Below, one piece after another: positions 1,818-55,551 of a stretch of DNA of 64,000 bases. The position numbers were made by a program, and so were the translations under genes. The stretch's first letter is position 1; every line of letters begins with the position of its first letter. This DNA is from an uncultured bacterium. GTDB lineage: Bacteria > Patescibacteriota > Minisyncoccia > Phycocordibacterales > Phycocordibacteraceae. Below the pieces are notes generated by a model that was not told the DNA's origin, made no database searches, and saw only the letters and a program-made list of their open reading frames with translations. The stretch spans positions 144,682 to 208,681 of the forward strand of contig CAVXAH010000001.1 of assembly GCA_963759775.1 (NCBI GenBank). The letters run 5' to 3'.

Positions 1818-3453
1818 CAAGGGGCGGCTCCGCAACACGAACCAATTCCTCAATTGTCGTCACCCCTTTTTTCACCTTACCAAGTCCGTCTTCAAACATA
1901 GAGACTGTTCCCTGCTTCTTTGCGAGTGCCCGAATAACTTGCGCTGGCGGTGAAGTAAGAACCAATTCTTGTATTTCAGGGGTAATGCGGATGAGCTCAA
2001 AAATGGCAGTGCGCCCACGGTATCCCGTATCACCACAAGCATTGCATCCTTTTCCACGATAGAGAGTAAGTTCTTTTTTTCCAAAGAAACGCGCGGTGAG
2101 TTTTGCGGGAAGCGCCACATCGGAGACCGACACGACGATACTTTGTCTACAATGATCACAAATCTTTCGAACCAACCTCTGTGCAACAATAATATTTAAT
2201 GTTGAGGCGAGAAGAAATGGCTCAATGTCCATCTCAAGGAGGCGTGGGAGAGACGTCGCGGCATCGTTTGCATGAAAGGTAGAAAGGAGAAGATGCCCCG
2301 TAAGAGCGGCGTTCACCGCTATCTCCGCTGTTTCTTGATCTCTAATTTCTCCTACCAAAATAATATCAGGATCCTGTCGCAAAATAGACTTTAGCCCGTG
2401 AGCAAAAGTGAGGCTCGTCTCTGGATTAACTTGAATCTGGTTTATGTTGGCAACTTTAAATTCAACGGGGTCTTCAATTGTGGTGATGTTTACTCCCGGC
2501 TGGTTGAGCGACCGAAGGAGCGTATAAAGCGTTGTCGTTTTGCCAGATCCGGTCGGACCAACAATAAGGACCATGCCGTACGGACGGTCTGCGGCATCCC
2601 GAAAAATCTTCTCGTTTTCAGGAGTAAAACCAATATCGGAAAGCGCAAGGCCGCCAAGATACGTTGCGAGAAGACGAAGCACTACTTTCTCCCCCTCAAC
2701 GGTCGGTACTACAGAGGTACGGATATCCAGTGCCACTCCGTCTTTCATGAATTGCATGGAACCGTCTTGCGCCGCAAAATGCTCATCAATACGGAGCCGG
2801 CTTTGGACTTTGATGCGGTTCAATACGTTTTCATAGCGGTCGCGCGAGATACGACCCGCCTCTTGGAGTACGCCGTCAATGCGAAAACGGAGGGCAACAT
2901 CTTCGGTCTGTGGCTCAAAGTGCACGTCGGATGCATGAAGCGTAATCGCGTCAGAGAGAATTTGCTCAAGCATCTCGGGAGCGATTTTTCCTTTTCCTTC
3001 TATGATGCTCGTCAGCCGAGTGGCAAGCGAGGTACGATAATTTTCAAAAACCACATCAAGGTCTTCAGACAAGGAATACGCTACGTAAATTTCTCGATCT
3101 TTAAAAAGAGTCTTCAGGGTAGCGAGTTTTGGGTTTTGTGGGTCGTCGGTTGTGATGACGATATGCTCAGGTGTTTCCTCAAAAAGAACGACTCGAAGAT
3201 CTCTTGCGGTGGCTTCAGGAATCTTGAGTACCTGTTCCTTTGAGGGTGTTTTTGAGTTGAGGTCGGCGTAGGGAACGCCAAATGATTCAGAAACTGCTTG
3301 TCCCAAAAGGTCGCCCGTAATGAGCTTGTTCTCCAGAAGATAAGTTGCGAGAGGGTTCTTTCCTACTGCTTCCAAATCCTTTTCGGCAACATAGTTCTCT
3401 CGGACGAGAATCTCCCTTAATTTTGCGTCGTCAATACGCATAGGCTTAGGCAA
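1810..3453 (-). CDS. pilB: GspE/PilB-family type IV pilus / T2SS assembly ATPase
   Basis: It carries Walker A GPTGSGKTTT, the Asp box and Walker B region LRQDPDIILVGEIRD, and a C-terminal tetracysteine (CxxC...CxxC) motif. Confidence 0.9.
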   Translation of the reverse strand: MPKPMRIDDAKLREILVRENYVAEKDLEAVGKNPLATYLLENKLITGDLLGQAVSESFGVPYADLNSKTPSKEQVLKIPEATARDLRVVLFEETPEHIVITTDDPQNPKLATLKTLFKDREIYVAYSLSEDLDVVFENYRTSLATRLTSIIEGKGKIAPEMLEQILSDAITLHASDVHFEPQTEDVALRFRIDGVLQEAGRISRDRYENVLNRIKVQSRLRIDEHFAAQDGSMQFMKDGVALDIRTSVVPTVEGEKVVLRLLATYLGGLALSDIGFTPENEKIFRDAADRPYGMVLIVGPTGSGKTTTLYTLLRSLNQPGVNITTIEDPVEFKVANINQIQVNPETSLTFAHGLKSILRQDPDIILVGEIRDQETAEIAVNAALTGHLLLSTFHANDAATSLPRLLEMDIEPFLLASTLNIIVAQRLVRKICDHCRQSIVVSVSDVALPAKLTARFFGKKELTLYRGKGCNACGDTGYRGRTAIFELIRITPEIQELVLTSPPAQVIRALAKKQGTVSMFEDGLGKVKKGVTTIEELVRVAEPPLDD

Positions 3454-3817
3454 GCACCTGTTTCACCTTGTCCACAATTTCGGAAAGAGGGGTATTTGAT
3501 TTAATGAGAAAATCCGTTGCACCAAGCTCGCGTGCTTTCTTCTCGTCCTCTAGCTGACTTAGGTTAGTCATCACCATAATTGGAGTCTTGAAATCTTTTA
3601 TCAGTCTGAATTTTGCGAGCGCGTCAAAACCATTCATTAGTGGCATTACGAGATCAAGCATTATGAGGTCAAACTTCTTTTTTTCCACAGAATCAACCGC
3701 TGCGGCGCCGTCATATACCGTAGTGACATCGTACCCCTCGTGGGTGAGCTTGAGAGTGAGTGCGTTTGCCATTGGTCTTTCGTCTTCAGCGACCAATATG
3801 CTTTTTTTAATGTCCAT
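3446..3817 (-). CDS. single-domain response regulator (CheY-like receiver)
   Basis: MDIKKSILVAEDE...DLIMLDLVMPLMNGFD...PIMVMTNL...GATDFLIK is a receiver domain with the phospho-acceptor Asp context. The ORF upstream of Met 3817 is probably non-coding. Confidence 0.85.
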   Translation of the reverse strand: MDIKKSILVAEDERPMANALTLKLTHEGYDVTTVYDGAAAVDSVEKKKFDLIMLDLVMPLMNGFDALAKFRLIKDFKTPIMVMTNLSQLEDEKKARELGATDFLIKSNTPLSEIVDKVKQVLA

Positions 3818-3863
3818 ATCTTTCGGTTCAGTATAGCAGGCACTTAGCGGTATACTCTTCCCT

Positions 3864-4835
3864 ATGCACATCTATATCACCCGACCTATTCCAAGTTCTG
3901 GAAAAGCTCTGCTCATCGCGCATGGATATGAGGTAACGGCAAATGATGAAGACCGTGTTCTCTCGAAGGCCGAGCTTTGCGCGGAGCTAAAAAAAGGCAC
4001 GTATGACGCGATGCTCTGCCTCCTCACCGACCGTATTGATGAGGAGGTGCTTGTCGCCGCGGGACCTACCTGCAAAATCATCGCCAATTACGCAGTCGGG
4101 TTTGACAACATTGACGTGGTCGCGGCGAAGAAACGTGGTGTCCTTGTTTCAAACACTCCCGGCGTTCTTTCAGATGCTGTCGCAGAGCACACCATTGCAC
4201 TAATGATGACCCTTGCACGGCGCGTGGTTGAGGCGGATAGCTTTGTGCGTACCGGTAAATATGAAGCGTGGGGCGCAATGCTTATGCTTGGTACTGAACT
4301 CACAAAAAAGACGCTTGGGATTATTGGTCTCGGTGCGATAGGTCGCCGTGTTGCACACATTGCAAGCCGTGGGTTTGGGATGCGAGTGTGTTACTACGAT
4401 GTGAAGCCTTCTCCCGATTTAGAGAAAGAGTACGGTGCAGAGTTTTGCTCGTCTGTTGATGCGGTATGCGAAAATGCAGACGTCATAACTCTCCATGTAC
4501 CACTCCTTCCTTCCACCACTCACCTTATAGATGAGCGTCGCTTGCGCCTGATGAAACCAAGCGCACTCCTCATCAACACTTCTCGCGGACCCGTTATAGA
4601 TGAAGTGGCGCTCGTAGAGGCACTTAAAGAAAAAGTCATTACTGGCGCGGCACTTGATGTATTTGAGCACGAACCAGCACTTTCCCCTGGGTTAGCGACG
4701 CTTTCAAATGTTGTTCTCACTCCCCATATTGCTTCTGCGACCACAGAAGCCAGAGACGCGATGGCAGAAACCGCAGCCGCAAACATCATTGCTGCACTTG
4801 AGGGCAAAACTCCTCCGAATCTCGTTGTCGTTTAG
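3864..4835 (+). CDS. D-isomer-specific 2-hydroxyacid dehydrogenase (glyoxylate/hydroxypyruvate reductase or D-glycerate dehydrogenase-like)
   Basis: It has the NAD-binding motif GIIGLGAIGRRVA and the catalytic region NTSRG...D...LD...E...TPHIAS. Confidence 0.85.
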   Translation: MHIYITRPIPSSGKALLIAHGYEVTANDEDRVLSKAELCAELKKGTYDAMLCLLTDRIDEEVLVAAGPTCKIIANYAVGFDNIDVVAAKKRGVLVSNTPGVLSDAVAEHTIALMMTLARRVVEADSFVRTGKYEAWGAMLMLGTELTKKTLGIIGLGAIGRRVAHIASRGFGMRVCYYDVKPSPDLEKEYGAEFCSSVDAVCENADVITLHVPLLPSTTHLIDERRLRLMKPSALLINTSRGPVIDEVALVEALKEKVITGAALDVFEHEPALSPGLATLSNVVLTPHIASATTEARDAMAETAAANIIAALEGKTPPNLVVV

Positions 4836-9694: not shown

Positions 9695-10879
9695 ATGGGA
9701 GAGAGCATGGATACTGTTATTTTCTTTGCGTATATTCTTGCGCTTTCTTTTTCCCTTTTTGTCGCCGGAGCACTCCTTGGCGCGCTTTTTTCTGCCCCAA
9801 TCCGAAAAAAAATAACCAAGCTTGTGCTTGGCGGAAGACATCGAACTGACCTTGACCTCTCAAAGACCTCTACAAACCCGCTCATAAAACCCGCGAGACA
9901 TCCGTGGGAAGCCGTTGCAACTTTCAACCCTGCGGCGCTCATGCTTGGCGACCGTATTCATCTTCTCTACCGTGCTATCGGAGTTGATGGCCTTTCACGC
10001 CTCGGCTACGCATCTACAAAAAATGCAGTCGTTATTGACGAGCGCCTTACGTCTCCGGCATACAGTCCACAAAACCCACGCATTGGCCTCCCCGGTCATA
10101 GGCGCTACTCACCCGTGCTCTACCCTTCTGGCGGAAGCTGGGGCGGTGTTGAGGACCCACGCATCGTCACCATTTCTGGAAGAGTATACGTTTCTTTTTC
10201 AGTATTTGATGGGTGGGACAACGTACGCATTGGACTTATTTCCATAAGCGAGGAAGATTTTCTCGCAAAGCGATTTGGAAACTGGAGCGCAGTTACTCTT
10301 CTCTCCCCTCCCGGCCAAATTCATAAAAACTGGGTCTTGTTCCCCGAAAAGATAAACGGCAAATTCGCGCTCATTCACAGCATTACTCCAAAAATTGAAA
10401 TCACGTATCGCGATTCGCTTGAAGCCATTGGAAATACAGAGCCCTATATTCAAAGTTGGAAAGGTGCACGCGACGCACGAAAAACACACGGTGAATTTTG
10501 GGACAGCTTTGTGCGCGGTGCCGGTCCACCGCCTCTTAAAACCGAACATGGCTGGTTGCTCTTTTATCATGCAATAGATGAGCGTGACCCCGGCAAGTAC
10601 AAACTCGGTGCGATGCTTCTTGACCTTAATGACCCGACAAAAGTGCTCCATCGTTCAAGCATTCCTGTTCTTTCGCCCGAGGAAAACTACGAGAACGAGG
10701 GGAAACCAGGCGTTGTGTATGCCTGTGGCGCGGTTATTCGGGGAGAAATGCTATACGTCTATTACGGCGGCGCCGACAAAGTGGTGTGTGTTGCCTTCGC
10801 GCCGCTTCGTACCTTTCTTAAGGCACTCATGTCCGGGAAGCGTGCGATACTAGTAAAAGCTCAAAATCCCAACACCTAA
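9695..10879 (+). CDS. GH130-family glycoside phosphorylase/hydrolase with N-terminal membrane anchor
   Basis: An N-terminal TM helix is followed by NP...WE..A.FNPAA, GVEDPRI, GAGPPPLKTEHGWLLFYHA and YKLGAMLLDLNDP...VYYGGADK, the beta-propeller signature of GH130 (mannoside-phosphorylase family). Confidence 0.75.
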   Translation: MGESMDTVIFFAYILALSFSLFVAGALLGALFSAPIRKKITKLVLGGRHRTDLDLSKTSTNPLIKPARHPWEAVATFNPAALMLGDRIHLLYRAIGVDGLSRLGYASTKNAVVIDERLTSPAYSPQNPRIGLPGHRRYSPVLYPSGGSWGGVEDPRIVTISGRVYVSFSVFDGWDNVRIGLISISEEDFLAKRFGNWSAVTLLSPPGQIHKNWVLFPEKINGKFALIHSITPKIEITYRDSLEAIGNTEPYIQSWKGARDARKTHGEFWDSFVRGAGPPPLKTEHGWLLFYHAIDERDPGKYKLGAMLLDLNDPTKVLHRSSIPVLSPEENYENEGKPGVVYACGAVIRGEMLYVYYGGADKVVCVAFAPLRTFLKALMSGKRAILVKAQNPNT

Positions 10880-10883
10880 AACT

Positions 10884-12782
10884 ATGTTTACTGTCCGACG
10901 TTCACCCCACAACCCAATCCTCTCGCCACGCCGCGAGCATCCCTGGGAAGCGCTCGCTGTTTTCAACCCGTCGGTCGTACAGGCCACAGACGGATTCCGG
11001 ATGTACTATCGTGCTCTTTCAAACCCCGACGCCCTCATCTCTCCCTACGCTGGCCAGTCAACTATTGGCGAAGCATTTTCGGAAGATGGGGCGCATTTTC
11101 ACTCACGTCGCCAAGTGCTCGTTCCGCAAGAACCTTGGGAAGCGTTTGGCTGTGAAGACCCGCGCGCAACAGTTTTTGAAGGAGTGACCTATCTCTCTTA
11201 CACCGCGATTGGCGGCTTCCCTTTTTCTGCGGACAACATCAAGGTCGCTATCGCCGTTGCAAAGGATGGGAAAAATTTTACCGAGCGACACCTTGCGACA
11301 CCTTTTAACGCGAAAGCCTTTGCACTTTTCCCCGAGCGCGTGGGCGGCAAAGTGGCCGCACTCCTTGCGGTACACACCGACCGGCCACCTTCAGAGATTT
11401 GTCTTGTGCTCGCCGATCGTGTGGAGGACTTCTGGTCAGCTGAGTTTTGGAAAAAGTGGTATGCCGACTGGCAAAGCCATGCCCTCAAACTTCGTCGAGA
11501 CGAGCGCGACCATGTGGAAGTCGGCGCGCCTCCTATAAAAACTGATGAGGGGTGGCTTCTCTTCTATTCCTATATAGAAGATTATTTTGGCGGTGGCGAG
11601 CGCGTCTTTAGTGTTGAGACGGCTCTGCTTGAGACAAATGACCCTTCAAAAATTGTGGCGCGCACAGAGTCCATCCTCGTTCCTGAAGAAATTTATGAGC
11701 GGTACGGCATTGCGCCAGACATTGTGTTCCCGACAAGCGTCGTGCGAAGCGATGAAGACACGATTGACCTCTGGTATGGCGCGGCCGACACCACCTGCGC
11801 GAAGGCTTCAATTCGCTTCTCTGATTTGCTTGATGCACTCTCTCCGAAAAAGGCGCGCGCGCTTACGCGCGCGAAAGAGAATCCGATTCTCACTCCTCGT
11901 GGAGATGGCTTTGAAAGTCTCGCGGTCTTTAATACTGCGGCGGTTGACATTGACGGCTCGGTTCGTCTCCTCTATAGAGCGATGGACCATGCACACACCT
12001 CTACTATAGGACTCGCAGAGAGTGGCGACGGCATTCATATTGATTCCCGGTCATCGACTCCTGTGTACGTGCCGCGTGCCGATTTTGAGCAAAAACGTGG
12101 AAGCCAAGACGGTAACTCCGGTTGCGAGGACCCACGCGCGGTTGTGATAGACGACCGTCTGTATATGACCTATACGGCGTACGACGGCGTGGTTTCGCCG
12201 CGTGGTGCAATAAGCTCTATTTCTCTTGATGATTTTCGTGCCAAACGCTTTGACGCGTGGAGCACGCCTTTCCTTTTGACACCAGACAATGTGGACGACA
12301 AAGACTTGGCCCTACTCCCGGAAAAAGTAAAAGGAAACTTCTTGCTCTACCACCGCATCAGCAGTCGCATTTGCGCCGATCTTCTTCCTGATCTCGCTTC
12401 CGGCAAACGCGTCTCGCGTTGCATTGAAATCCTTGGACCACGCCACGGCATGTGGGACGGCGTACGCATAGGCATGGCGGGACCACCTATAAAAGTAGAG
12501 GCAGGCTGGCTCTTCATTTATCACGGTGTCTCACGGCACGGCACGTATCGTCTTGGTGCGGCACTTCTTGACCCCTCCGGTACCGAGGTGCTTGCGCGCA
12601 GCGCCGACCCTCTCTTCGAGCCTGAGACTGACTACGAAATGAAAGGTGAAGTTAACCGAGTTGTCTTTTCTTGCGGGCAGGTTGTACGCGGCGACACGCT
12701 CTTCCTCTACTACGGTGGCGCCGATACAGTTACCGGTGTTGCAACCGGCTCTTTGTCGCATATTGTGAAAACGCTGTCATAA
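10884..12782 (+). CDS. tandem double GH130 domain protein
   Basis: There are two complete GH130 modules. The first runs from NPILSPRREHPWEALAVFNPSVV...CEDPRA...LWYGAADT. The second runs from NPILTPRGDGFESLAVFNTAAV...CEDPRA...LYYGGADT. Confidence 0.75.
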   Translation: MFTVRRSPHNPILSPRREHPWEALAVFNPSVVQATDGFRMYYRALSNPDALISPYAGQSTIGEAFSEDGAHFHSRRQVLVPQEPWEAFGCEDPRATVFEGVTYLSYTAIGGFPFSADNIKVAIAVAKDGKNFTERHLATPFNAKAFALFPERVGGKVAALLAVHTDRPPSEICLVLADRVEDFWSAEFWKKWYADWQSHALKLRRDERDHVEVGAPPIKTDEGWLLFYSYIEDYFGGGERVFSVETALLETNDPSKIVARTESILVPEEIYERYGIAPDIVFPTSVVRSDEDTIDLWYGAADTTCAKASIRFSDLLDALSPKKARALTRAKENPILTPRGDGFESLAVFNTAAVDIDGSVRLLYRAMDHAHTSTIGLAESGDGIHIDSRSSTPVYVPRADFEQKRGSQDGNSGCEDPRAVVIDDRLYMTYTAYDGVVSPRGAISSISLDDFRAKRFDAWSTPFLLTPDNVDDKDLALLPEKVKGNFLLYHRISSRICADLLPDLASGKRVSRCIEILGPRHGMWDGVRIGMAGPPIKVEAGWLFIYHGVSRHGTYRLGAALLDPSGTEVLARSADPLFEPETDYEMKGEVNRVVFSCGQVVRGDTLFLYYGGADTVTGVATGSLSHIVKTLS

Positions 12783-13594: not shown

Positions 13595-15262
13595 CTAGTT
13601 GCGACAAAGTCGCGCGAGACGGATAGTTTCGTAGGAATATTCTCCGCGAAGCGCATTAAAAACTGGCGCAAGTCGGTCGCTGGTTGCTGTTCTAAATGCT
13701 TCGCGTATTTCATCACGCGCACTCTGCGAAAGTAGGTGCTCAAAGTCGTTTTTCACCAGTGTGCCGAGTTCGGCAAGATCTTCAAGATGTTTCACCACCG
13801 TGCTTTCGGTGAGTCCGCGCGCTTTCGCCGCGTCTTTGAGACTCCTTGCATCCCGCACCGCAGAAAGCGTCTCCGCAAGTCTTCCCGGCATCCCCTTAAC
13901 ACTTTTCTTCCCACTTCCTGCTTCCAGATCGCCGCTTACTGTGACCCCGCCCATTACCTTCACATATCTCTTTTGCATTTCTACTATTTCAAGCGGCGGA
14001 AGATTCGAAAACGTGCCGTTCGCGGTTTCTGATAGTTCCCGAAACTCTATATCTTTCTCAAGAATCTCTGGATGTACCGCAAGCGCGCGTTCATTGATAC
14101 CAAGGAGGTGAAGCCCCTCAAGCCGGCGCACACGCGAAAGCGCCACGTACCCTTGCCCATATTCAAATGCTTGCGAAAGGTCTATCACTGCCGCGTCCAT
14201 GCTCATGCCTTGGCTCTTATGTACCGTCATGGCGTACGCAAGGCGGAGGGGCACTTGAGCAATTGAGGCCTTCACCTTCCCATTTTCTTCCACCTGCCAT
14301 TCCATGGGCTCCGCCGTTACATACTTCCCGTCCTTTACCCGTACGACTGGCAGACCGCTCCCCAGCTCAAAATCTGCAACCGTACCGAGTGTGCCGTTTA
14401 CAAATTTCCCCTGGGGAGAGTTTTTCGTAAACATGACTGCCGCACCCATCTTAAGCTCAAGCACCTCAGGCGAAAGACATCCGCGCATAAGACCTTCCAC
14501 CATGGAATCCTTTCCTTTTGAACTCATATAGAATTTCTTGGGAACACCCTTGAGCTTGGCGAGCTCCGCCGCATTGATACGATCTACATCAGCATTGTGC
14601 GAAAAAAGTCTTGGGAGCCCTTCGGGAGTTTTCTCCACTTCCATTTTGCGCGCCATGAGGTGTTCGTAGTGCAGTTCCTCCACTGTACCGCTTCGTATTG
14701 CAGAAAGTACCGAAAGAAAATGCACATCATCTTGGCGGTGTTGCTCCGTGAGATAGCAGATAAGGGGGTTCTGCGCATGCCATGAGGCGGAGTCGTAGGC
14801 AAATTTCACTTCACGACCCATTTTCGCGACGGGCGGAAGCTGAAAAAAGTCGCCGACCAAAATTACCTGCAGTCCGCCAAATGGTTTTGCGACTCGCCGG
14901 ACTTCCCTACACACGGCATCCGCCGCTTCAAAGGTTGCGGCAGAAAGCATTGAAACTTCATCAATAATGAGCACTTTTGCTTTTTGAATACGGCGTGCCA
15001 CATGCTCCTTACTTGCGATTCGGTCTACCTCGGCACGCGAAAGCGAGTCGGCGATACCAATCCCACTCCACGAGTGGAGCGTCATACCGCCCACGTGTGT
15101 TGCGGCAATTCCTGTTGCGGCCGTAACCGAGGGTTCAATGCCGCACGCACGAAGCCATGCGACAAACGCATTAATGGTGTGCGTCTTTCCACTCCCCGGC
15201 TCCCCAGTAAGAAATACGTTTGCACCCGTTTTTAAAATAGTGAGTGCTTCCGCCTGCGTCAT
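13595..15262 (-). CDS. PIF1/RecD-like superfamily 1 DNA helicase with C-terminal HTH domain
   Basis: It has Walker A LTGEPGSGKTH, Walker B VLIIDEVSML, QLPPV, and the late motifs TVHKSQGMS and GQGYVALSR. The likely start is MTQAEAL at 15262; the ORF-track extension to 15364 reads through a repeat element. Confidence 0.85.
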   Translation of the reverse strand: MTQAEALTILKTGANVFLTGEPGSGKTHTINAFVAWLRACGIEPSVTAATGIAATHVGGMTLHSWSGIGIADSLSRAEVDRIASKEHVARRIQKAKVLIIDEVSMLSAATFEAADAVCREVRRVAKPFGGLQVILVGDFFQLPPVAKMGREVKFAYDSASWHAQNPLICYLTEQHRQDDVHFLSVLSAIRSGTVEELHYEHLMARKMEVEKTPEGLPRLFSHNADVDRINAAELAKLKGVPKKFYMSSKGKDSMVEGLMRGCLSPEVLELKMGAAVMFTKNSPQGKFVNGTLGTVADFELGSGLPVVRVKDGKYVTAEPMEWQVEENGKVKASIAQVPLRLAYAMTVHKSQGMSMDAAVIDLSQAFEYGQGYVALSRVRRLEGLHLLGINERALAVHPEILEKDIEFRELSETANGTFSNLPPLEIVEMQKRYVKVMGGVTVSGDLEAGSGKKSVKGMPGRLAETLSAVRDARSLKDAAKARGLTESTVVKHLEDLAELGTLVKNDFEHLLSQSARDEIREAFRTATSDRLAPVFNALRGEYSYETIRLARLCRN

Positions 15263-15321
15263 CGGGCGATTATATCCTAGAGCACGTTCAAAAACCCTAA
15301 CCCGAAGGCGAGTGCATGCAT

Positions 15322-15398
15322 CGGAGGGGGTTGCGAAGCGCGACGGCGCGAGCATTTCAGGCATTTTTTCAGCAGAAAAAATGCCGTACCCGAGGAGG
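15322..15398. repeat. 77 nt intergenic repeat, copy 1 (family A), with 10 bp hairpin at 15360-15385
   Basis: About 85 percent identical to 26059-26135. The hairpin is ggcatttttt-cagcag-aaaaaatgcc. The other copy has ggtatttttt...aaaaaatacc, a compensatory change. Confidence 0.8.
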
Positions 15399-15434
15399 CA
15401 TGCACCCGCCTGAGGGAGGTTTCGGAATTTGCGA

Positions 15435-25143: not shown

Positions 25144-25992
25144 TCATTTAGACGTCTCCAGTAACTCCTCTCCGTCGCCCACGAGACTCATGCGGTAGAT
25201 ATCGAAGGAGTTTTGCCCCTCAAACATGTCAGATGGGTTTGGAAGATAAATGCGCCGCCTGGCGATTTCGTTCGTTGCGTCCGCAATAAGTCGGTGGAAT
25301 ACCGTGAACTCCTCGGCGCATTTACGGAAGTCTATGACGTAGCGGCGTAGTTGTGCCCTGCCGTCCTTGTTCTTTCGCTTTTTGCATTCATACACAATGA
25401 ACCGACAGACTGGTTTCCCAAATAGTTCTCGCACCGTGTAGTAATTGAAAATGGCTTGGATGATGAAAAGTGACTTCGTTGCACCCTCTTTGCTGAAGGA
25501 GTCCACAAACTTGTGGTCCACAATATCAACCGCGCCTCTTTCAAGCGGAGACTCAACCACGAGGTCGGAAATGGCTTTGAGTGGAAGCGGCAATCCATTA
25601 ACTTCCACCACGCCTCGCACCTCTACCCCAAGCACCTTGTGCCTGGGCGCTCGAGCGAGGTAAAAGCCGATAGCTTGCAGATATTCCCGCTCCATGGAGA
25701 GACGCTTTTCTTTTTTTGCCTTTCGAGTTTTCGCTCTTCCAAAGTCAATCTCAAAATCAGCGACCCCGCGCAAATATTCAAGCCCTCGCTCTGTCGCCGT
25801 ATTTTTGTCAACGCCCTTATAAAAGTGCTCAAGTGCCAGGTGCCCCGCGCGCCCGATGATTCCGGCAGGGGTTGAGGGTGTGTCATACACCTCTTCTACA
25901 TACCGCTTGTACCAGGCAAGGGGATTCCGCAGGAACGACATCAGTGACGAATGGCTCCAGTGTTTTATGGGGTATCGCCGCTTCGCCGTCAT
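25144..25992 (-). CDS. PD-(D/E)XK nuclease superfamily protein (RecB/Cas4-like fold)
   Basis: It has GRAGHLALEHF, ISDLVVE...VDIVDHKF (D...D-x-K) and a later Q..FNYY motif. The likely start is MTAKRRYPIKHWSHSS at 25992; the ORF-track extension reads through repeat copy 2. Confidence 0.6.
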   Translation of the reverse strand: MTAKRRYPIKHWSHSSLMSFLRNPLAWYKRYVEEVYDTPSTPAGIIGRAGHLALEHFYKGVDKNTATERGLEYLRGVADFEIDFGRAKTRKAKKEKRLSMEREYLQAIGFYLARAPRHKVLGVEVRGVVEVNGLPLPLKAISDLVVESPLERGAVDIVDHKFVDSFSKEGATKSLFIIQAIFNYYTVRELFGKPVCRFIVYECKKRKNKDGRAQLRRYVIDFRKCAEEFTVFHRLIADATNEIARRRIYLPNPSDMFEGQNSFDIYRMSLVGDGEELLETSK

Positions 25993-26058
25993 GGAGGAAG
26001 TATACGCAAAAATCTCATTCGGCACATTCCTGAAGCGAGCACGCGAGGGGAAGTGTAT

Positions 26059-26135
26059 CCGAGGGGGTCGTGAAGCGCGACGGCGCAAACGTTTCAGGTA
26101 TTTTTTCAGCAGAAAAAATACCGTACCCGAGGAGA
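26059..26135. repeat. 77 nt intergenic repeat, copy 2 (family A), hairpin at 26097-26122
   Basis: See copy 1 at 15322-15398. This copy lies between the rpoD stop and the nuclease promoter. Confidence 0.8.
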
Positions 26136-26165
26136 CACTTATCCGAGCGGGCTTTGCAATGAGCT

Positions 26166-42438: not shown

Positions 42439-42489
42439 TGACCTTTCTATTGTACCAAAAGAAAAGGTGTGATGCGGTACAATAACCCT

Positions 42490-43542
42490 ATGCCCAAAGA
42501 AACCTTCTCGTCCCTTCAGCACTTTTTGTTCCTTGGCGTGCTCCTTGGGGTTACCGCTCTGTTCATCTGGCTTCTCTCTCCTTTCGTTATGAGTGTGTTC
42601 TGGGCGCTCGTGCTCGCCATTGTGCTTCATCCGGTCTTCGTTCATCTTTCTGCGCGAATGAAAGGTCCGGTCATTGCAGCGCTCACTACCATTCTTCTCA
42701 CCCTAGTCATTGTCGGCGTTCCTCTCTACTTCATTGGGTCGCGCACCGCACATGAAGGACTTGCGCTTTACCACCACATTGCATCTGGCGGGGTGGACTT
42801 CAATGCTATAACCGAAAATCCACTCGTTGCGAAAACTCTGCTCTTCATTGGAGTTGAGCCTAGCGGAGCGGTAGCCGGAGTAAGTGCTTTTATACGAGAC
42901 ACGAGCGGAACCATCGCAGGAGAAGCGCTCTCCATTGGCGCAGCAACGGCGAGCGTGCTTCTTAAAACCGCTATCACGCTCTATCTCCTCTTCTTCTTTT
43001 TGAAAGATGGTGTAGCGATCGCACGCTACTTTCAACGCATCATTCCTCTTGGGGACGAGCGCGAACGCCTCCTCTTTAAACGCTTTACCTCAACGACCCG
43101 CGCCGTTCTCAAAGGAACCCTCATTGTTTCCATCGCTCAAGGTCTTATCGGAACCATTATCTTCTTGATCGCGGGTGTGCAAAGTGCGGTGCTGTGGGGT
43201 GTCTTGATGGCGTTTTGTGCCATGATCCCGGCCGTCGGCCCTTTCCTCGTTTGGCTTCCTATCGGGCTCTTCTTGCTTGTCACGGGTAGCGTGTGGCAAG
43301 GAGCACTCGTCCTCATTGCCGGAGCATTCATCATTGGCAGTGTAGACAATATCCTTAGACCGATTCTTGTGGGACGCGATATTGAAATGCCGGATGCGCT
43401 TGTGCTTCTTTCCATCTTGGGAGGCATCGCTACCTTCGGTGTCGCTGGCGTTATCATCGGCCCCGTCATCGGTGCCCTGTTCCTCTCGATTTGGGATTTG
43501 TTTGGAAAGGACTTTAGCGAAGAAATAGCCCTCCACGGGTAG
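42490..43542 (+). CDS. AI-2E family transporter (PerM/YhhT-like permease)
   Basis: It is a polytopic membrane protein with the characteristic C-terminal region ILRPILVGRDIEMPDALVLLSILGG. The ATG at 42490 is preceded by TACAAT plus 6 nt; the ORF-track start is 42469. Confidence 0.75.
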   Translation: MPKETFSSLQHFLFLGVLLGVTALFIWLLSPFVMSVFWALVLAIVLHPVFVHLSARMKGPVIAALTTILLTLVIVGVPLYFIGSRTAHEGLALYHHIASGGVDFNAITENPLVAKTLLFIGVEPSGAVAGVSAFIRDTSGTIAGEALSIGAATASVLLKTAITLYLLFFFLKDGVAIARYFQRIIPLGDERERLLFKRFTSTTRAVLKGTLIVSIAQGLIGTIIFLIAGVQSAVLWGVLMAFCAMIPAVGPFLVWLPIGLFLLVTGSVWQGALVLIAGAFIIGSVDNILRPILVGRDIEMPDALVLLSILGGIATFGVAGVIIGPVIGALFLSIWDLFGKDFSEEIALHG

Positions 43543-43679
43543 CGTATCCCAAAATCCTCATCTGCTTCGTTGCTCGCTCCGATGCGCCCTCACCATAGAT
43601 CTGACTATGGCTCGGTTTGCTTCTCGCTCGCGCCTTGCATCTGAAGGATTTTTGGACACGCTACAAGAAACAAAATGTG

Positions 43680-43711
43680 AAAACCGGGCACGCATGCGTG
43701 CCCGGTTTTTT
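43680..43711. terminator. rho-independent terminator (palindromic, usable on both strands)
   Basis: The sequence is aaaaccgggcacgc-at-gcgtgcccggtttttt, immediately downstream of ORF 43727-44029 on the reverse strand. Confidence 0.75.
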
Positions 43712-43726
43712 CTCGCATAAAAAACT

Positions 43727-44029
43727 TTAGTGTCCTTCGATTTGCCGACGAAGTACTTTCGGAGCTCGAAGTTTTCCAAGAAGCGCGAGACTCTCCTTGC
43801 CTGTGAGACGACGACCCATGTAAAGGTGCGAGTAGGAAAGAACCGAGAAAGCAACTGGGTGCGCGTGAACCGATTGGCTCTTGCAAATGACCTTCAGAAG
43901 TTCCTGCTTGTCTTCTTCCGTCATCAAGCGCTCGTGCTGTCCAGATGTTGCGAGAGCCTGATTTTTCCTCAACTCCATAGCTGCTGCGATCACTTCAGGG
44001 TACATGGTATTCCCCGGTGGTGGATCCAC
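43727..44029 (-). CDS. hypothetical 100 aa protein with weak XRE-type HTH-like C-terminus (cassette X cargo)
   Basis: The segment SVLSYSHLYMGRRLTGKESLALLGKLRAPKVL resembles the second half of an XRE HTH. The GTG start is preceded by TATACT plus 5 nt, and a terminator lies downstream. Confidence 0.4.
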   Translation of the reverse strand: MDPPPGNTMYPEVIAAAMELRKNQALATSGQHERLMTEEDKQELLKVICKSQSVHAHPVAFSVLSYSHLYMGRRLTGKESLALLGKLRAPKVLRRQIEGH

Positions 44030-44053
44030 GTATAAGTATACCTTGCCCCGGTC

Positions 44054-44138
44054 TCACCAACGCATTTTATCAAGCCCAGCTTGAGCGGCGGCCTGTTCAG
44101 CCTCTTGCTTTGATTGCCCTTCTCCGCGCGCTATTTCT
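44054..44138 (-). repeat. diverged duplicate of the last 85 nt of rnc (including a stop codon)
   Basis: About 82 percent identical to 44853-44937. It encodes EIARGEGQSKQEAEQAAAQAGLDKMRW-stop, against ...AQNGLEKMRW-stop in the real gene. Confidence 0.85.
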
Positions 44139-44196
44139 CTCAATTTGCGATTTGTCTGGAAAGGACTTTAGTGAGGAGATAGCGTTGCATGGGTAG
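44137..44196 (+). repeat. diverged duplicate of the last 59 nt of perM (including a stop codon)
   Basis: It aligns to 43484-43542 and encodes LSICDLSGKDFSEEIALHG-stop, against LSIWDLFGKDFSEEIALHG-stop in the real gene. It abuts the rnc fragment back-to-back. Confidence 0.85.
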
Positions 44197-44248
44197 AACT
44201 TTCTAAACTATCCAACACCTGGTGTTGGATAAATTAAGACAAAAATAA

Positions 44249-44270
44249 CCCCGCGCTCGGATGCGCGGGG
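44249..44270 (-). terminator. rho-independent terminator of ORF 44283-44726
   Basis: The stem ccccgcgc-tcggat-gcgcgggg is followed on the reverse strand by ttattttt. A second hairpin lies at 44209-44231. Confidence 0.7.
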
Positions 44271-44282
44271 AAACAAAGAATC

Positions 44283-44726
44283 TTATTCTTGCAACTCTGT
44301 CTTTAGCAGCGCCAGGAAAATGTCCTCGAATGTTGCTTTCGGTTGGCGGGACAACAACTTCACCATTGAGGAAACGTTCCTACCCGCCTCAATCTGAAGA
44401 GTCACGAAATTCTGTGCCGACCCGCCCCTCTTCACCTTGAGGAATCGAAATGCGAGTAATTCTTTCTCACTCACTTTCAAAACCTTGGCCAAAGGCGGTA
44501 TACGGGACTTCGAAATCGCTCTGTCCCCGAGACGAAATTCACGATAGATACGACCCTCTGAAACAGACCCTGTGCCGAGCAAAAGCGCGACCCGCTCTCC
44601 AATCTGAGTAGGAGTCAAGAGAAGATCGACTTCTCTTTGCTTGAGGAAATTGCTCTGCTCGTCGATGTCTTGTTCTTTTTTTTGACTCGAATCTACAACG
44701 GTTATTTGAAAAGTCTTCATTTCCAC
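44283..44726 (-). CDS. XRE-like helix-turn-helix protein, 147 aa (cassette Y cargo)
   Basis: LTPTQIGERVALLLGTGSVSEGRIYREFRLGDRAISKSRIPPLAKVLKVSEKELL fits the XRE HTH pattern. It has its own TATAAT box and a GGGAG Shine-Dalgarno sequence 7 nt before the ATG. Confidence 0.6.
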   Translation of the reverse strand: MEMKTFQITVVDSSQKKEQDIDEQSNFLKQREVDLLLTPTQIGERVALLLGTGSVSEGRIYREFRLGDRAISKSRIPPLAKVLKVSEKELLAFRFLKVKRGGSAQNFVTLQIEAGRNVSSMVKLLSRQPKATFEDIFLALLKTELQE

Positions 44727-44775
44727 ACTCCCATTTCACGCCACGGAATGTGACGATTCCGCCATTTATTATATA

Positions 44776-44799
44776 CTACCACCTCATCTTGTCAAGACC
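44776..44799 (-). repeat. third, 24 nt copy of the rnc stop region
   Basis: Compare ctaccacctcatcttgtcaagacc with ctaccacctcatcttttctagacc at 44853-44876. Together they flank the family B hairpin as direct repeats. Confidence 0.75.
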
Positions 44800-44801
44800 T
44801 G

Positions 44802-44838
44802 CCCCGCACTAAACCTCGAGGACTCGGTTAGTACGGGG
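44802..44838. repeat. small palindromic repeat, family B, copy 1
   Basis: Compare ccccgcactaaacctcgaggactcggttagtacgggg with ccccgcactaaatgctcgaggactcgcagttagtacaggg at 48714-48753. Confidence 0.75.
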
Positions 44839-44852
44839 TAAACTTGCGGCTG

Positions 44853-45536
44853 CTACCACCTCATCTTTTCTAGACCGTTTTGGGCGGCAGCTTGTTCAGC
44901 CTCTTGCTTTGATTGCCCTTCTCCACGCGCTATTTCTTCTTTATCCAAAAAGATGCCAACGGTAAAAAGCTTTGCGTGGTCGGGACCAACCTGGGAAATG
45001 GTTTTGTATGCGGGAGTAACGCCACGCTTGTCCTGTGCTGCTTCTTGAAAACGACTCTTCGCGTCTTGGTAGCTCTTGTTTGCAATGACCTGATCAATCT
45101 TTCCGTAAAGATTATTGGCAATAAATGCCTCAGCGCCTTCGTACCCCTGGTCAAGGTAAATCGCGCCGATAATAGCTTCAAACGCATTTGCCAGAATAAT
45201 TTGGCGCGCACGGCCAGTGTCCTTTGCCTCGCCTTTTGAAAGGAGCAGGTAGCCGTTGATGCCGATTGCTCCCGCAACTTCGGCGAGCGAGACCGTGTTC
45301 ACGAGCGCCGCACGATAGCTGGTGAGCTCCCCTTCTGGTTTTGCAGGAAATTTGTCGTACAGAAAACGCGTCACGGCAAGTTCAAGCACCGCATCGCCCA
45401 AAAATTCAAGACGCTCGTTGTGGGACGAAGCCAGCCCCTTGTTTTCATTCAAATACGAACGATGTGTCAGCGCCTCGGCAAGAAGGCCGAGATCTTTAAA
45501 AGAAATACCGAGTTTCTTGGCGAAAGCCTCGAAGTC
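44853..45536 (-). CDS. rnc: ribonuclease III
   Basis: It has the RNase III signature NERLEFLGDAVL and a C-terminal dsRBD (KSRFQEAAQ...GEGQSKQEAEQAAA). The likely start is MDFEAFAKKLG at 45536. Confidence 0.9.
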   Translation of the reverse strand, partial: DFEAFAKKLGISFKDLGLLAEALTHRSYLNENKGLASSHNERLEFLGDAVLELAVTRFLYDKFPAKPEGELTSYRAALVNTVSLAEVAGAIGINGYLLLSKGEAKDTGRARQIILANAFEAIIGAIYLDQGYEGAEAFIANNLYGKIDQVIANKSYQDAKSRFQEAAQDKRGVTPAYKTISQVGPDHAKLFTVGIFLDKEEIARGEGQSKQEAEQAAAQNGLEKMRW

Positions 45537-45576
45537 CATAGCCACTAGGGTATCGGGTTTAGGGAAGATATACAAA

Positions 45577-46506
45577 CTAGGAACGACCGCCCGGGATTGG
45601 GGTGGCACCTGCACCAAGACGTGCCTGGTCAAGGAGTTTTTGAACCGCCGCGGTCACTATAGGGAGCATGTCGTCATAAAAATTGAGGTCAAGAATGTCT
45701 TGGAGACGGAACCACTTCGCGTCGTCAAGCCCTCCGCTTTTTTTAAGCGTCACTGGCTCAAAGGGAGAGGAAGCGAGGAAAAACCAAACGTGTTTGCGTA
45801 CCTTTCCCTTCTCCGGATGCGAAGCGACATACTCATTTTCGCCTACCTGTGACTCAACTTTGCAAGTCAAGCCCAACTCCTCTTTCACTACGCGCTCAAC
45901 ACCGCGCTCGGGTGTCGCATCTTTCTCAATATGACCTTTTGAGAGGGTCCAGTGTCCGAACACGTCGTGCACGAGCGCGAGGTAGTACTGACCATCGTGC
46001 CTTGCGTAGACAATCGCTCCCCCCATCTTTTCAAGAGGGAGATCTTCTCTTTTTACTTTCTTCTTCCCTGTCTCTTCTTTACCTGGTTCGCCGATTTCTT
46101 TGTATACCGCACCGAGTACGCCGTTTACAAAGCGGCCTGAGGAGTCTCCACCAAATGTTTTCGCGAGCTCAATGGCTTCGTTAATAGCGACCTTCGCTGG
46201 GACTTGGGAACGATCGGCAAACAAAAGCTCAAAAAGTCCAAGGCGAAGGATGTTGCGATCAACAGGCGCGATGCGCTCAAGCGGCCATTCAGGAGCCGCT
46301 TTTACAATGATGAGATCAATGTCTTCTTTTTTTGCGAGCACGCCTTTGAGGAGAGTTTCCATGAACGGCATATCGGCGCTGTCGCCTCCAAACTCGGCGG
46401 CGTTGCGCCCGAGAATTGCGTGCGCCTCGGCGTCCGTAACGTGCGTCGTGTCCCATTCAAAGAGGGACTGAAGTACCACCGAACGAGCGAGGTGTCGATT
46501 TGCCAT
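45577..46506 (-). CDS. nusB: NusB antitermination factor fused to a C-terminal Nudix hydrolase domain
   Basis: Residues 1-140 are NusB (ARSVVLQSLFEWD...VAINEAIELAKTFGGDSSGRFVNGVLG). The C-terminal 150 aa carry a Nudix box variant (GHIEKDATPERGVERVVKEELGL). Confidence 0.75.
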   Translation of the reverse strand: MANRHLARSVVLQSLFEWDTTHVTDAEAHAILGRNAAEFGGDSADMPFMETLLKGVLAKKEDIDLIIVKAAPEWPLERIAPVDRNILRLGLFELLFADRSQVPAKVAINEAIELAKTFGGDSSGRFVNGVLGAVYKEIGEPGKEETGKKKVKREDLPLEKMGGAIVYARHDGQYYLALVHDVFGHWTLSKGHIEKDATPERGVERVVKEELGLTCKVESQVGENEYVASHPEKGKVRKHVWFFLASSPFEPVTLKKSGGLDDAKWFRLQDILDLNFYDDMLPIVTAAVQKLLDQARLGAGATPIPGGRS

Positions 46507-53298: not shown

Positions 53299-55551
53299 TT
53301 ATGCTCCGAGAGTTGCAAGTGCGCGTGTAAGTGCAAGCTTCGCACCCGTTACTCCGGTTGAGTAGCTCGCGTCAATCGCGGTCGTAAGTGAAGCGATTAC
53401 GCGCTCAAGTACTGGAGTGTCGCAGGAAGCGCAGATGCGCGCCACTTCTGGGTCGCATTCTGTACCGTCAACGCGTGCGCGGTATGCGTCATCAAGCGCG
53501 CAGGTTGTGTGTGTGAGGAGCTGTTCGACGTTCCCTCCGCCCTTAACGTGGTTTCGAAGCGTGCCGAAGACTCCGTCACGGTCGCGCTCAACAAGTGAAG
53601 CAATAAAGCCTCGTACGTGAGGAGCAACTCCCTTTCCGCCTTCGTGGCGCGCATGTGCTGTTTCTGTAGAGCGCGATGGAACGATAGGCTCAACTCGTTC
53701 GTAGATTGGTTCTACGCGCGGTGCTCGCTTGGACATGACTTCATCGAGCAAAACTGGTTCTGGAGCAGGCTTCTCAGAGACCGCTGTGTGGCGCGCAAGA
53801 CCTTTCACAATGTCTTCAATAGAGAGCTTTCCTTCGGTAGCAAATGATTTGAAGCCGTCATACGGTGAGTACGCGCGGCGCATAACCGGTGCTTCCACAG
53901 TCATCTCATAATGCATTTCTTCTGTTGGAGCCTCTACGACTTCCTCTACCGCTATCGGTGCGTAGGCAAGCTTCTCCGTGTTCAAGAGTGCGGAAACGCG
54001 TTCGCCAAAGGTGCGTGCGCCGCGCGCCGCAAACGGTACCGCTCCAAAAAGCACGAGATACGCGAGTGCGAGCGACCAGAGCACGAGAGCGAGCCAATAG
54101 AGCACGGTGCCCGCGGGGCCTAGATCAAGTCCGGTGTACGGAATTTGCGAAAGATAGAGGAACGCGAGTGGTTGCACCGCTGGTCCAGGAAGCGCCTGGA
54201 GAATGACTCGTGGGTTCCTGCTACCGCCGCCTCCACCACCTCCGCCTCCGCAGTTGCTCGTACAACCGCTTGTTTCAATAACTACGGCTGCTTCGCATGA
54301 GACTGTTTGCCCCGAAGCAGAAATAGCGGTTCCCGTGAACGTGATATTTGCCGTAATGGCGGGTGTTGCCACCGAGCCGCCAGCGACAGGCGTTGTAGAG
54401 CCGATGCCTTGGTTAATCGCAAAACTAACGGCGTTTGATGTGGTCCACGTAAGAGTTGATGTATTGCCGGAAGTAACGGTTGTAGGACTTGCGCTGAGTG
54501 TGCATACGGGCGCTGGAGGACCTCCTGGAGGGATTACCGTGACTGTCGCAGCACACGTGACGGTTCCACCTGCGCCTGTGGCAGTTCCCGTATACGTTGT
54601 GGTGCTTGAAAGCGCCGGAGTGGTTGTTGAACCAGCAGCAACCGGAGTCACCGAACCGATGCCCTGATCAATAGTGAACGCAGTGGCATTCGTGGTTGTC
54701 CACGAAAGCGTTGAAGTGCCACCTGTAGTCACAGAAGTCGGAGAAGCAGTAAGTGTGCAGACGGGTGCAGGAGGTGGTGGAGGAGTGGTTGAGATAGCGA
54801 CTGTTGCGCTACATGTAACTGTTCCACCTGCTCCTGTTGCAGTGCCAGTGTAGGTAGTCGTCGCGACAGGCGAAACCGAAGTTGAGCCGGCATCGACTGG
54901 AGTAACCGAACCAACGCCATTATCTATAACAAAAGATGTTGCATCCGATGTGGTCCACGAAAGGGTTGAGGTACCGCCCGGGGCAATGATGGTTGGCGAA
55001 GCAGTAAGGGTACATACCGGTACAACAGGCGCGGCCGGAGGAGGAGCGACATCAACCTGTGCGTCACAGGTCGTTTGTCCACCAGGACCATTCACGGTCA
55101 TTGTGTAAAGAGTGCTCGTAACTACGGTAACGTCGACAGAACCAGCGTCAACCGGACTCACCGAACCCACACCATTATCAATAGTGGCATCGGTCGCGGC
55201 TACGGTAGTCCACGAAAGTGTTGAGATTCCACCGCCAAAAGGAAGCGAGGTTGGAGAAGCAGAAAGCGTACAGGTTGGCGGAGGTGGAAGCGGTGGGGGT
55301 GGCGGAGGAGGTGGGGGCGGAGGTGGTGGTGGTGGCGGTGGCGGGGGTGGGGGCGGAGGAGGTGGTGGTGGAGGTGGAGGCGGTGGGACGCAGCAGGGTG
55401 GCAAAACTTGAGCAAGCACTTGTGAAGGTGTGGTAAGACCCGTCGCAAAAGCGATAGTCATGCCTGCGGCAACTGTTGCGAGAACGACAAAGAGCCCGAT
55501 CAAAATCGGATGGGCTTTTACGTATGAATTCTTTTTGCTTTTAGTTGTCAT
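53299..55551 (-). CDS. 750 aa surface protein: TM anchor, ~45-residue poly-proline stalk, four Cys-bounded Ig-like repeats, poly-Gly, IPYTG motif plus TM, cytoplasmic tail domain
   Basis: It starts with MTTKSKKNSYVKAHPILIGLFVVLATVAAG..., followed by PPCCVPPPP(P)n. Four repeats of about 85 aa follow, starting with CTL(S/T)ASPT..TSTL(S/T)WTT. The sequence then continues GGGGGGGGG, YLSQIPYTGL and a hydrophobic helix. The ORF-track extension to 55896 overlaps the upstream gene. Confidence 0.7.
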   Translation of the reverse strand: MTTKSKKNSYVKAHPILIGLFVVLATVAAGMTIAFATGLTTPSQVLAQVLPPCCVPPPPPPPPPPPPPPPPPPPPPPPPPPPPPPPPLPPPPTCTLSASPTSLPFGGGISTLSWTTVAATDATIDNGVGSVSPVDAGSVDVTVVTSTLYTMTVNGPGGQTTCDAQVDVAPPPAAPVVPVCTLTASPTIIAPGGTSTLSWTTSDATSFVIDNGVGSVTPVDAGSTSVSPVATTTYTGTATGAGGTVTCSATVAISTTPPPPPAPVCTLTASPTSVTTGGTSTLSWTTTNATAFTIDQGIGSVTPVAAGSTTTPALSSTTTYTGTATGAGGTVTCAATVTVIPPGGPPAPVCTLSASPTTVTSGNTSTLTWTTSNAVSFAINQGIGSTTPVAGGSVATPAITANITFTGTAISASGQTVSCEAAVVIETSGCTSNCGGGGGGGGGSRNPRVILQALPGPAVQPLAFLYLSQIPYTGLDLGPAGTVLYWLALVLWSLALAYLVLFGAVPFAARGARTFGERVSALLNTEKLAYAPIAVEEVVEAPTEEMHYEMTVEAPVMRRAYSPYDGFKSFATEGKLSIEDIVKGLARHTAVSEKPAPEPVLLDEVMSKRAPRVEPIYERVEPIVPSRSTETAHARHEGGKGVAPHVRGFIASLVERDRDGVFGTLRNHVKGGGNVEQLLTHTTCALDDAYRARVDGTECDPEVARICASCDTPVLERVIASLTTAIDASYSTGVTGAKLALTRALATLGA

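Follow-up and report, generated by a model that had tools for sequence, protein, structure and literature searches.

In the 64,000-nt stretch that we analyzed (hereafter the window; contig CAVXAH010000001.1 of assembly GCA_963759775.1, from an uncultured Kaiserbacteria/Paceibacteria-like bacterium of the Patescibacteria, or Candidate Phyla Radiation, CPR), the convergent genes perM and rnc are separated by 1310 bp, from the end of perM at 43542 on the plus strand to the end of rnc at 44853 on the minus strand. This interval holds two small genes, which we call X and Y, together with additional gene ends, one of perM and two of rnc. Comparison with related genomes shows that the perM/rnc junction is a variable insertion hotspot. 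We consider it probable that its contents accumulated through repeated homologous and illegitimate recombination with the DNA of relatives at a permissive site, rather than through an att/integrase cassette system.

The perM/rnc junction in related genomes

perM adjoins rnc in seven genomes, the window included, and is not adjacent to it in the other 78 rnc loci. The site is empty in three of these seven: the two stop codons lie 6 nt apart in L161, 3 nt apart in L167 and 0 nt apart in L166, whose perM genes are 81%, 69% and 62% identical to that of the window. The empty sites thus include the two genomes with the closest perM (L161 and L167; the identity of all perM orthologues ranges from 57% to 81%). 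The remaining relatives carry cargo that differs from one genome to the next, namely a single 58-aa membrane protein in L168 (perM 65% identical), a single 253-aa protein within 1065 bp in L001 (62%) and several genes over approximately 3.1 kb in L003 (67%), and the window has X, Y and three gene-end remnants. Since the site is empty in some relatives and holds unrelated cargo in others, it is a variable hotspot. This is what the first-pass annotation of the sequence had proposed, and the comparison of relatives for cassette variability revealed no fixed tandem arrangement. In the ancestral state, as far as these genomes indicate, essentially no intergenic DNA separated the two genes.

Core genes surround the junction: the window has smc and nusB-NUDIX, and relatives have rpmF and rnhB farther out. 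The order smc-perM-rnc-nusB/NUDIX-rpmF-rnhB is found in full in L166 and from perM onward in L161, and the short contig of L167 covers perM and rnc only. The fusion of nusB with a NUDIX hydrolase (309 aa; window 45577-46506, minus strand; L161 2160-3083; L166 4843-5775) is itself kept in relatives.

A displaced gene end is also present in one of the occupied relatives. L003 has an rnc-end remnant at 2310-2366, which encodes ..AQAGLDKMR-stop and lies approximately 600 nt past the live rnc stop, just 3' of a gene with an IPT/TIG domain. Insertion that leaves remnants therefore appears from these sequences to have arisen independently at least twice. The cargo of L001 and L168 comes without remnants. 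We discarded short rnc-like matches found 3' of rnc in L002, L029, L033 and L040, which correspond to the KKQEAE motif of smc. In a separate observation, one gene of the L003 cargo (3115-3894, minus strand) and that of L001 (5961-6722, minus strand) belong to a common family of 253-259 aa that has a hydrophobic segment at the N terminus and matches nothing in Pfam, suggesting that part of the cargo of this site predates the split of the two lineages.

Displaced gene ends and the joints between them

Repeat finding placed all the copied gene ends of the window where the first-pass annotation had put them (Table 1), and BLAST of the three remnants against the live ends returned E values of 1e-22, 4e-15 and 3e-5. 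The longer rnc copy, remnant 2, is 84% identical to the live end over 83 nt (44056-44138 versus 44855-44937). The extra perM end has the last 59-74 nt of live perM as its template, with 80% identity in its extended form (44123-44196 versus 43469-43542). The shorter rnc copy, remnant 3, matches the live end at 22 of 24 positions (92%; 44776-44799 versus 44853-44876) and that of L161 at 21 of 24. Its location stands as first described, and its length grows from 24 nt to 27-28 nt when BLAST is run against the L003 and L161 alleles. For comparison, live rnc is 85% identical to its orthologues in L161 and L167.

The differences between remnants and live genes are concentrated at third codon positions, which account for 11 of the 15 differences in remnant 2 and for eight of the ten in the perM remnant, leaving two amino-acid changes in each. 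Random substitution in the same number would be expected to change 10.5 residues in rnc and 7.2 in perM (P < 5e-5 and 1.5e-4, respectively). This bias argues that the remnants derive from working genes of diverged relatives and not from a decaying local duplicate, in agreement with the earlier view of them as functional alleles. The hairpin immediately downstream of the perM remnant is probably the perM-side stem-loop of the donor. When the 61 genes of the window were scanned for displaced gene ends, these occurred at the perM/rnc locus only.

Remnant 2 is a mosaic of three zones. Its stop-proximal zone (44054-44093) is diverged, with 12 differences to live rnc in 38 nt (32%); its core of 32 nt (44094-44125) is identical; and its last 13 nt (44126-44138) have one mismatch. 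To evaluate the identical block we compared the equivalent segments of 61 independent rnc alleles from relatives, in approximately 1,770 pairs. Pairs with 12 stop-proximal differences have on average 7.3 differences in the 32-nt block, and a block with zero differences was found in only one pair of the approximately 1,770. Because of this rarity, the identity is not explained by mere protein conservation and points to shared recent ancestry. Most simply, the block would mark a crossover point. Its size agrees with the minimal efficient processing segment (MEPS) for RecA-dependent transformation, which is 25-35 bp as quoted in PMC6382021. Together with the adjacent zone, the block forms a direct repeat (44094-44138 and 44893-44937; 44 of 45 positions match) that is spaced by 799 bp and bounds the Y unit. 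Such an arrangement fits the integration of a circle by crossover within the rnc end, as the first-pass annotation had suggested from the topology.

At the other side of remnant 2, the rnc-like and perM-like sequences meet back to back. Homology of remnant 2 to at least 50 rnc alleles always ends at 44137/44138, and perM-like homology begins at approximately 44120-44128, so that the two overlap; the perM alleles of relatives read GCGCTCTTCCTCTC or GCGCTATTCATCTC at this point. The back-to-back joint had been recognized from the start. Its microhomology, first given as ttyctc, may extend to 11 nt (GCGCTATTTCT), and the joint looks like an illegitimate microhomology join of about 5 to 11 nt. A possible GCA/GGCA overlap is present also at the joint between remnant 3 and the neighboring stem-loop (44802-44838). 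The back-to-back junction creates a chimeric 59-aa open reading frame (ORF; 44017-44196, plus strand), which runs antisense across remnant 2, continues in frame into the perM remnant and ends in ..DLSGKDFSEEIALHG-stop; it is probably a by-product of the junction and not a gene.

The boundaries of the three independent rnc remnants, that of L003 included, lie about 27, 33-57 and 85 nt from the stop codon. Such differing lengths mean that there is no fixed crossover site. The proposal that the gene ends act as att-like sites consequently loses ground: the boundaries vary, the cargo holds no recombinase and the joint looks illegitimate.

Cargo genes and neighboring features

The -35 hexamer of the Y promoter falls within rnc remnant 3. 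TTGACA corresponds to the Leu-Asp-Lys codons CTT GAC AAG, and the same sequence is present in the live rnc of L161; we therefore rejected the possibility that two point changes within remnant 3 had made the hexamer, which is native to the rnc codons of relatives. In the donor, the Y promoter would have overlapped the rnc end. Since this -35 lies within the rnc end, remnant 3 would travel with Y and be retained. The expression signals first noticed for Y were recovered: the TATAAT belongs to a promoter that matches the sigma-70 consensus perfectly, the GGGAG precedes the ATG by 7 nt, and the terminator is canonical.

Y belongs to a small family, with two distant homologues of 136-140 aa in 1.84 billion representative sequences. 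Y itself has no match in Pfam. One homologue, P0123, matches HTH_3/HTH_31 with E = 0.0015 and 18.9 bits, below the cut-off of 23, and the PADLOC "control protein" model with E = 0.0027. A profile of the three Y sequences weakly matches the DNA-binding domain of BldD (2ewt, E = 0.076). The AlphaFold model of Y, predicted without an alignment, is unusable (predicted local distance difference test, pLDDT, 45.9). These signals make an XRE-like fold of Y plausible. Both genes had initially been labeled as helix-turn-helix (HTH) genes; the label holds weakly for Y, through sub-threshold homologue and profile signals, and finds no support for X in family or structure databases. Exact look-ups of Y in the contig index, as 147 aa or 145 aa, returned nothing, and neither X nor the Y family was found in scans of viral contigs. 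P0123 is the nearest homologue of Y, with 47% identity across the central 62 residues. It is encoded at L170 547-957 as a lone accessory gene between an rplI-like gene and convergent rpmA, on an unrelated, low-GC short contig without remnants. The Y family thus again occupies a gap between core genes.

X is an orphan gene, more likely of 92 aa from the ATG at 44005. The earlier reading as a leaderless gene of 100 aa is less likely, given a GGGGA 7 nt upstream of this ATG and the fact that the sole database entry is the 92-aa form. A search of 5.8 billion proteins for homologues of X returned only self-matches, and nothing matched in Pfam, PHROG, NCBIfam, PADLOC or PDB. The structure model, predicted without an alignment, has a pLDDT of 58.6. 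In the contig index, the 100-aa form was not found and the 92-aa form matched one Logan contig, an independent contig where X also adjoins perM.

Table 1. Features of the perM/rnc locus, in window coordinates
Feature	Position	Strand	Details
perM, AI-2E family transporter, live gene	42469..43542	+	Pfam PF01594, E = 4e-47
Imperfect palindrome, 126 nt, within X-side spacer	43539..43664		Onset on perM stop codon
Bidirectional terminator-like hairpin, perM/X gap	43680..43709		13-pair stem, 8 GC pairs; T-run 3' on each strand
Cargo gene X, orphan	43727..44005	-	92 aa (100 aa from GTG 44029)
rnc 3'-end remnant 2	44054..44138	-	85 nt; encodes EIARGEGQSKQEAEQAAAQAGLDKMRW-stop
32-nt block	44094..44125		0/32 differences to live rnc 44893-44924; candidate crossover footprint, MEPS size
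Back-to-back junction J, GCGCTATTTCT	44128..44138		Antisense rnc (..EIAR) plus synonymous perM allele (A-L-F-L)
perM 3'-end remnant	44137..44196	+	Encodes ..LSICDLSGKDFSEEIALHG-stop; 83% identity to live end, 60 nt
Hairpin directly 3' of perM-remnant stop	44204..44236		16-nt arms, 88% complementary
Y intrinsic terminator	44249..44270	-	8 GC pairs, then TTATTTTTGT
Cargo gene Y, small family	44283..44720	-	145 aa; weak XRE/BldD-like HTH signal
Y promoter	44768..44795	-	TTGACA-16-TATAAT, 12/12 consensus
rnc 3'-end remnant 3	44776..44802	-	24-27 nt; encodes (A)GLDKMRW-stop
Stem-loop, live rnc stop to remnant 3 gap	44802..44838		-22.6 kcal/mol, z = -2.6; no U-tract 3'
rnc, RNase III, live gene	44853..45542	-	Pfam PF14622, PF00636, PF00035

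The palindrome that starts on the perM stop codon has 20-nt arms with 90% complementarity and a fold of -45.3 kcal/mol (z = -3.8). It has a homologue at another site in the Patescibacteria genome UBA6033 (L022 4708-4848), where it directly follows the TAG that ends a 117-aa ORF and precedes nusB, and these are the only two copies among the window and 170 loci. The arms of the two palindromes are conserved, with eight base pairs maintained through compensatory changes. The element could be a mobile hairpin or a small RNA; an Rfam scan of the window, palindrome included, gave zero matches. The stem-loop next to the live rnc stop had been assigned to a "family B"; with up to three mismatches allowed, it occurs just once in the window.

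Elsewhere in the window, an 84-nt repeat with 88% identity (15317-15400 and 26054-26137) comprises a leader hairpin (GGCATTTTTTCTGCTGAAAAAATGCC) and the first codons of the minus-strand genes 13595-15364 and 25144-26088, which suggests that the two are paralogues with a common 5' regulatory element. A 45-nt stretch at 9891-9935 is 78% identical to 10931-10974; it lies upstream of the gene at 10884-12782 and resembles the 5' region of that gene, as could result from tandem paralogues or from a 5'-end remnant. GGN-rich periodic repeats of 9-15 nt at 55253-55387 (and at 54763-54785) form a glycine-rich, low-complexity coding stretch.

Proposed route of insertion, competing explanations and known systems

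We propose that the perM/rnc site is a permissive hotspot in one Kaiserbacteria-like clade, whose unoccupied state would be the one with stop codons 0-6 nt apart. The incoming DNA would stem from diverged relatives that already bore cargo at this site, and would probably enter through natural transformation; natural competence and homologous recombination have been demonstrated in cultivated Patescibacteria (PMC10633639). The general recombination machinery of the host would fix it, with no dedicated recombinase or att site. On one side, homologous exchange would take place inside a flanking gene, with the 32-nt identity block in rnc as the likely exchange point. On the other side, the DNA would be joined illegitimately through a short microhomology within the 3' end of the resident gene. 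This may have happened either by homology-facilitated illegitimate recombination (HFIR) or by Campbell-type insertion of a fragment circularized at the same microhomology; the joint between the stem-loop and remnant 3 would fit plain HFIR. With a replacement gene end supplied by the donor DNA, rnc would have remained intact, and its previous end, once displaced, would have persisted as a remnant. At least two such events would have stacked X and Y, with remnant 3 kept for the -35 that it contributes to Y. What we infer in this scheme is how the DNA entered, in which sequence the events followed each other and which form, linear or circular, the intermediate took.

Two observations weigh against this scheme. 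Simple linear HFIR with its anchor at the core only would leave the 45-nt segment in single copy. Its duplication would need a circular intermediate, or an anchor deeper within rnc together with mosaicism from an earlier event, or a preceding tandem duplication, in which case microhomology-mediated duplication would have been followed by allelic replacement. In addition, we found no donor with a single perM'-Y-rnc' arrangement, and Y is an orphan; a metagenome scan with perM returned no relative above 46% identity and no donor genome.

A purely local origin, in which the interval was tandemly duplicated through microhomology and one copy then decayed in place, would produce exactly this topology and would account for both the near-identical 45-nt segment and the microhomology at the joint. 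However, X and Y are unrelated, and the diverged parts of the remnants have changed almost solely at synonymous sites, unlike non-functional copies. Moreover, the perM remnant is diverged up to the joint, and foreign alleles are therefore needed anyway, which turns the local origin into a variant of recombination with relatives; taken by itself, we regard it as unlikely. We think it very unlikely that the structure, as assembled, is a chimeric contig in which a strain with X and a strain with Y were merged. Such a merger would be in line with X being on record from a Logan assembly and Y from the NCBI/ENA record only. It would also agree with the fact that the Logan contig (ERR12037361), in which perM, X and remnant 2 are colinear over 1,252 nt, stops exactly with the final base of the shared 32-nt block, indicating a branch in that read set. 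On the other hand, an overlap of at most 11 nt at the joint of the rnc and perM copies is too short to mislead a k-mer or overlap assembler, and bubble merging would not abut points from the interior of two genes. The contig of origin measures 594,792 bp, an analogous rnc remnant is found in L003, an independent genome from another study, and remnant 3 is integrated as the predicted -35 of the Y promoter.

Dedicated cassette exchange, in which small circles would use the perM and rnc 3' ends as att-like sites for a site-specific recombinase encoded elsewhere in the genome, ranks lower still. The duplication of both gene ends and their back-to-back joining, as at a circle junction, speak for it, as do the identical 32-nt direct repeat around the Y unit, which resembles an att core, and the variability of the site among relatives. 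The remnants, however, have no common core, L001 and L168 have cargo without any remnants, and the pattern occurs at one locus only in 64 kb. No recombinase family is matched by any cargo ORF tested in the four occupied genomes (window, L001, L003 and L168), as the first-pass annotation had stated for the window. Scans of the window cargo against Pfam, PHROG and PADLOC, and of the cargo of relatives against Pfam, found no transposase, integrase or recombinase, and the flanking genes scanned together with the cassette genes gave no integrase match either. The repeats found include no attC-like or terminal inverted repeats at the borders of the X and Y cassettes, and BLAST of the interval revealed no match to plasmids or phages; similarity to insertion sequences (ISs) or defense systems was likewise absent. 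By the same token, the locus shows neither an integrase match nor the attC-like palindromes of integron cassettes, and it lacks the recombinase domains and the fixed shared crossover core of site-specific integrative elements. It also differs from ISs and miniature inverted-repeat transposable elements: no inverted repeats surround X or Y, the stem-loop at 44802-44838 is single-copy in the window, and the 24-nt repeat represents a gene end rather than a typical target-site duplication. We give the least credence to an integrase-free or trans-mobilized mini-cassette system, in which perM-end/cargo/rnc-end circles of approximately 0.7-0.8 kb would excise and reintegrate via the 32-45-nt block. 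If it were true, single genes would be shuttled among Kaiserbacteria populations, and the HTH-like Y could take part in this.

The first-pass annotation knew of no described system with such a layout, yet known processes leave it. Recombination with relatives at a permissive site most closely recalls three of them. As PMC3787668 describes them, the minimal mobile elements of Neisseria (Saunders & Snyder 2002; Snyder 2007) are short variable regions between conserved flanking genes that hold different whole-gene cassettes, or none, in close relatives. According to that description they have no mobility genes, and transformation, with homologous recombination within the genes on either side, accounts for their exchange. 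The perM/rnc site shares the variable content, empty sites included, the absence of a mobility gene and a mosaic rnc end that signals homologous recombination. A classical minimal mobile element, however, is replaced cleanly by a double crossover, whereas here the cassettes are stacked, pseudo-ends of both flanking genes are kept, a single crossover with an illegitimate joint is implied, and the host is an uncultivated Kaiserbacteria-like CPR bacterium. In HFIR (de Vries & Wackernagel 2002; Prudhomme et al. 2002), as summarized in PMC6382021, one side is anchored by homology and the other is joined at a short microhomology, so that foreign DNA is trapped beside the anchor gene. The rnc-like/perM-like overlap at 44128-44138, next to a homologous anchor, measures at most 11 nt, at or slightly over the 3-10 bp of the HFIR joints in that summary. 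HFIR is known there from laboratory transformation with selection, whereas our case is read from natural scars, and a 45-nt duplication is not the usual outcome of replacement. Campbell-type insertion-duplication leaves an inserted unit bounded by a direct repeat of the homologous segment, as is the case here (45 nt, one mismatch), although the locus has no plasmid or replicon, homology spans just 85 nt and the circle is hypothetical. The accretion of islands at tRNA and tmRNA 3' ends (Dehalococcoides ssrA, PMC3146451; integrative and conjugative or mobilizable elements, PMC5812530) also stacks partial ends of the target gene and supplies a replacement end. In that process the element encodes an integrase and the att core is identical and fixed in position, whereas here the cargo has no integrase match and the boundaries differ.

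The locus is therefore not a new class of mobile element but a new example, unusually legible and from a CPR genome, of recombination processes that are already known. It displays footprints of gene acquisition at base-pair level in an uncultivated lineage, namely a MEPS-sized block at the likely crossover, a joint at a microhomology, and displaced gene ends whose source alleles are 16-20% diverged. This sequence evidence suggests that these tiny genomes gain accessory genes at a permissive site between convergent core genes by recombining with the DNA of fairly distant relatives, and that a displaced gene end can be retained by supplying the -35 of the newcomer's promoter. RecA-type recombination across the 45-nt repeats would release a circle of 799 bp and leave rnc intact again, with the ending ..AGLDKMRW-stop. 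With this 799-bp unit and its flanking repeats, the perM/rnc junction offers a locus for population-level studies of recombination in the CPR.

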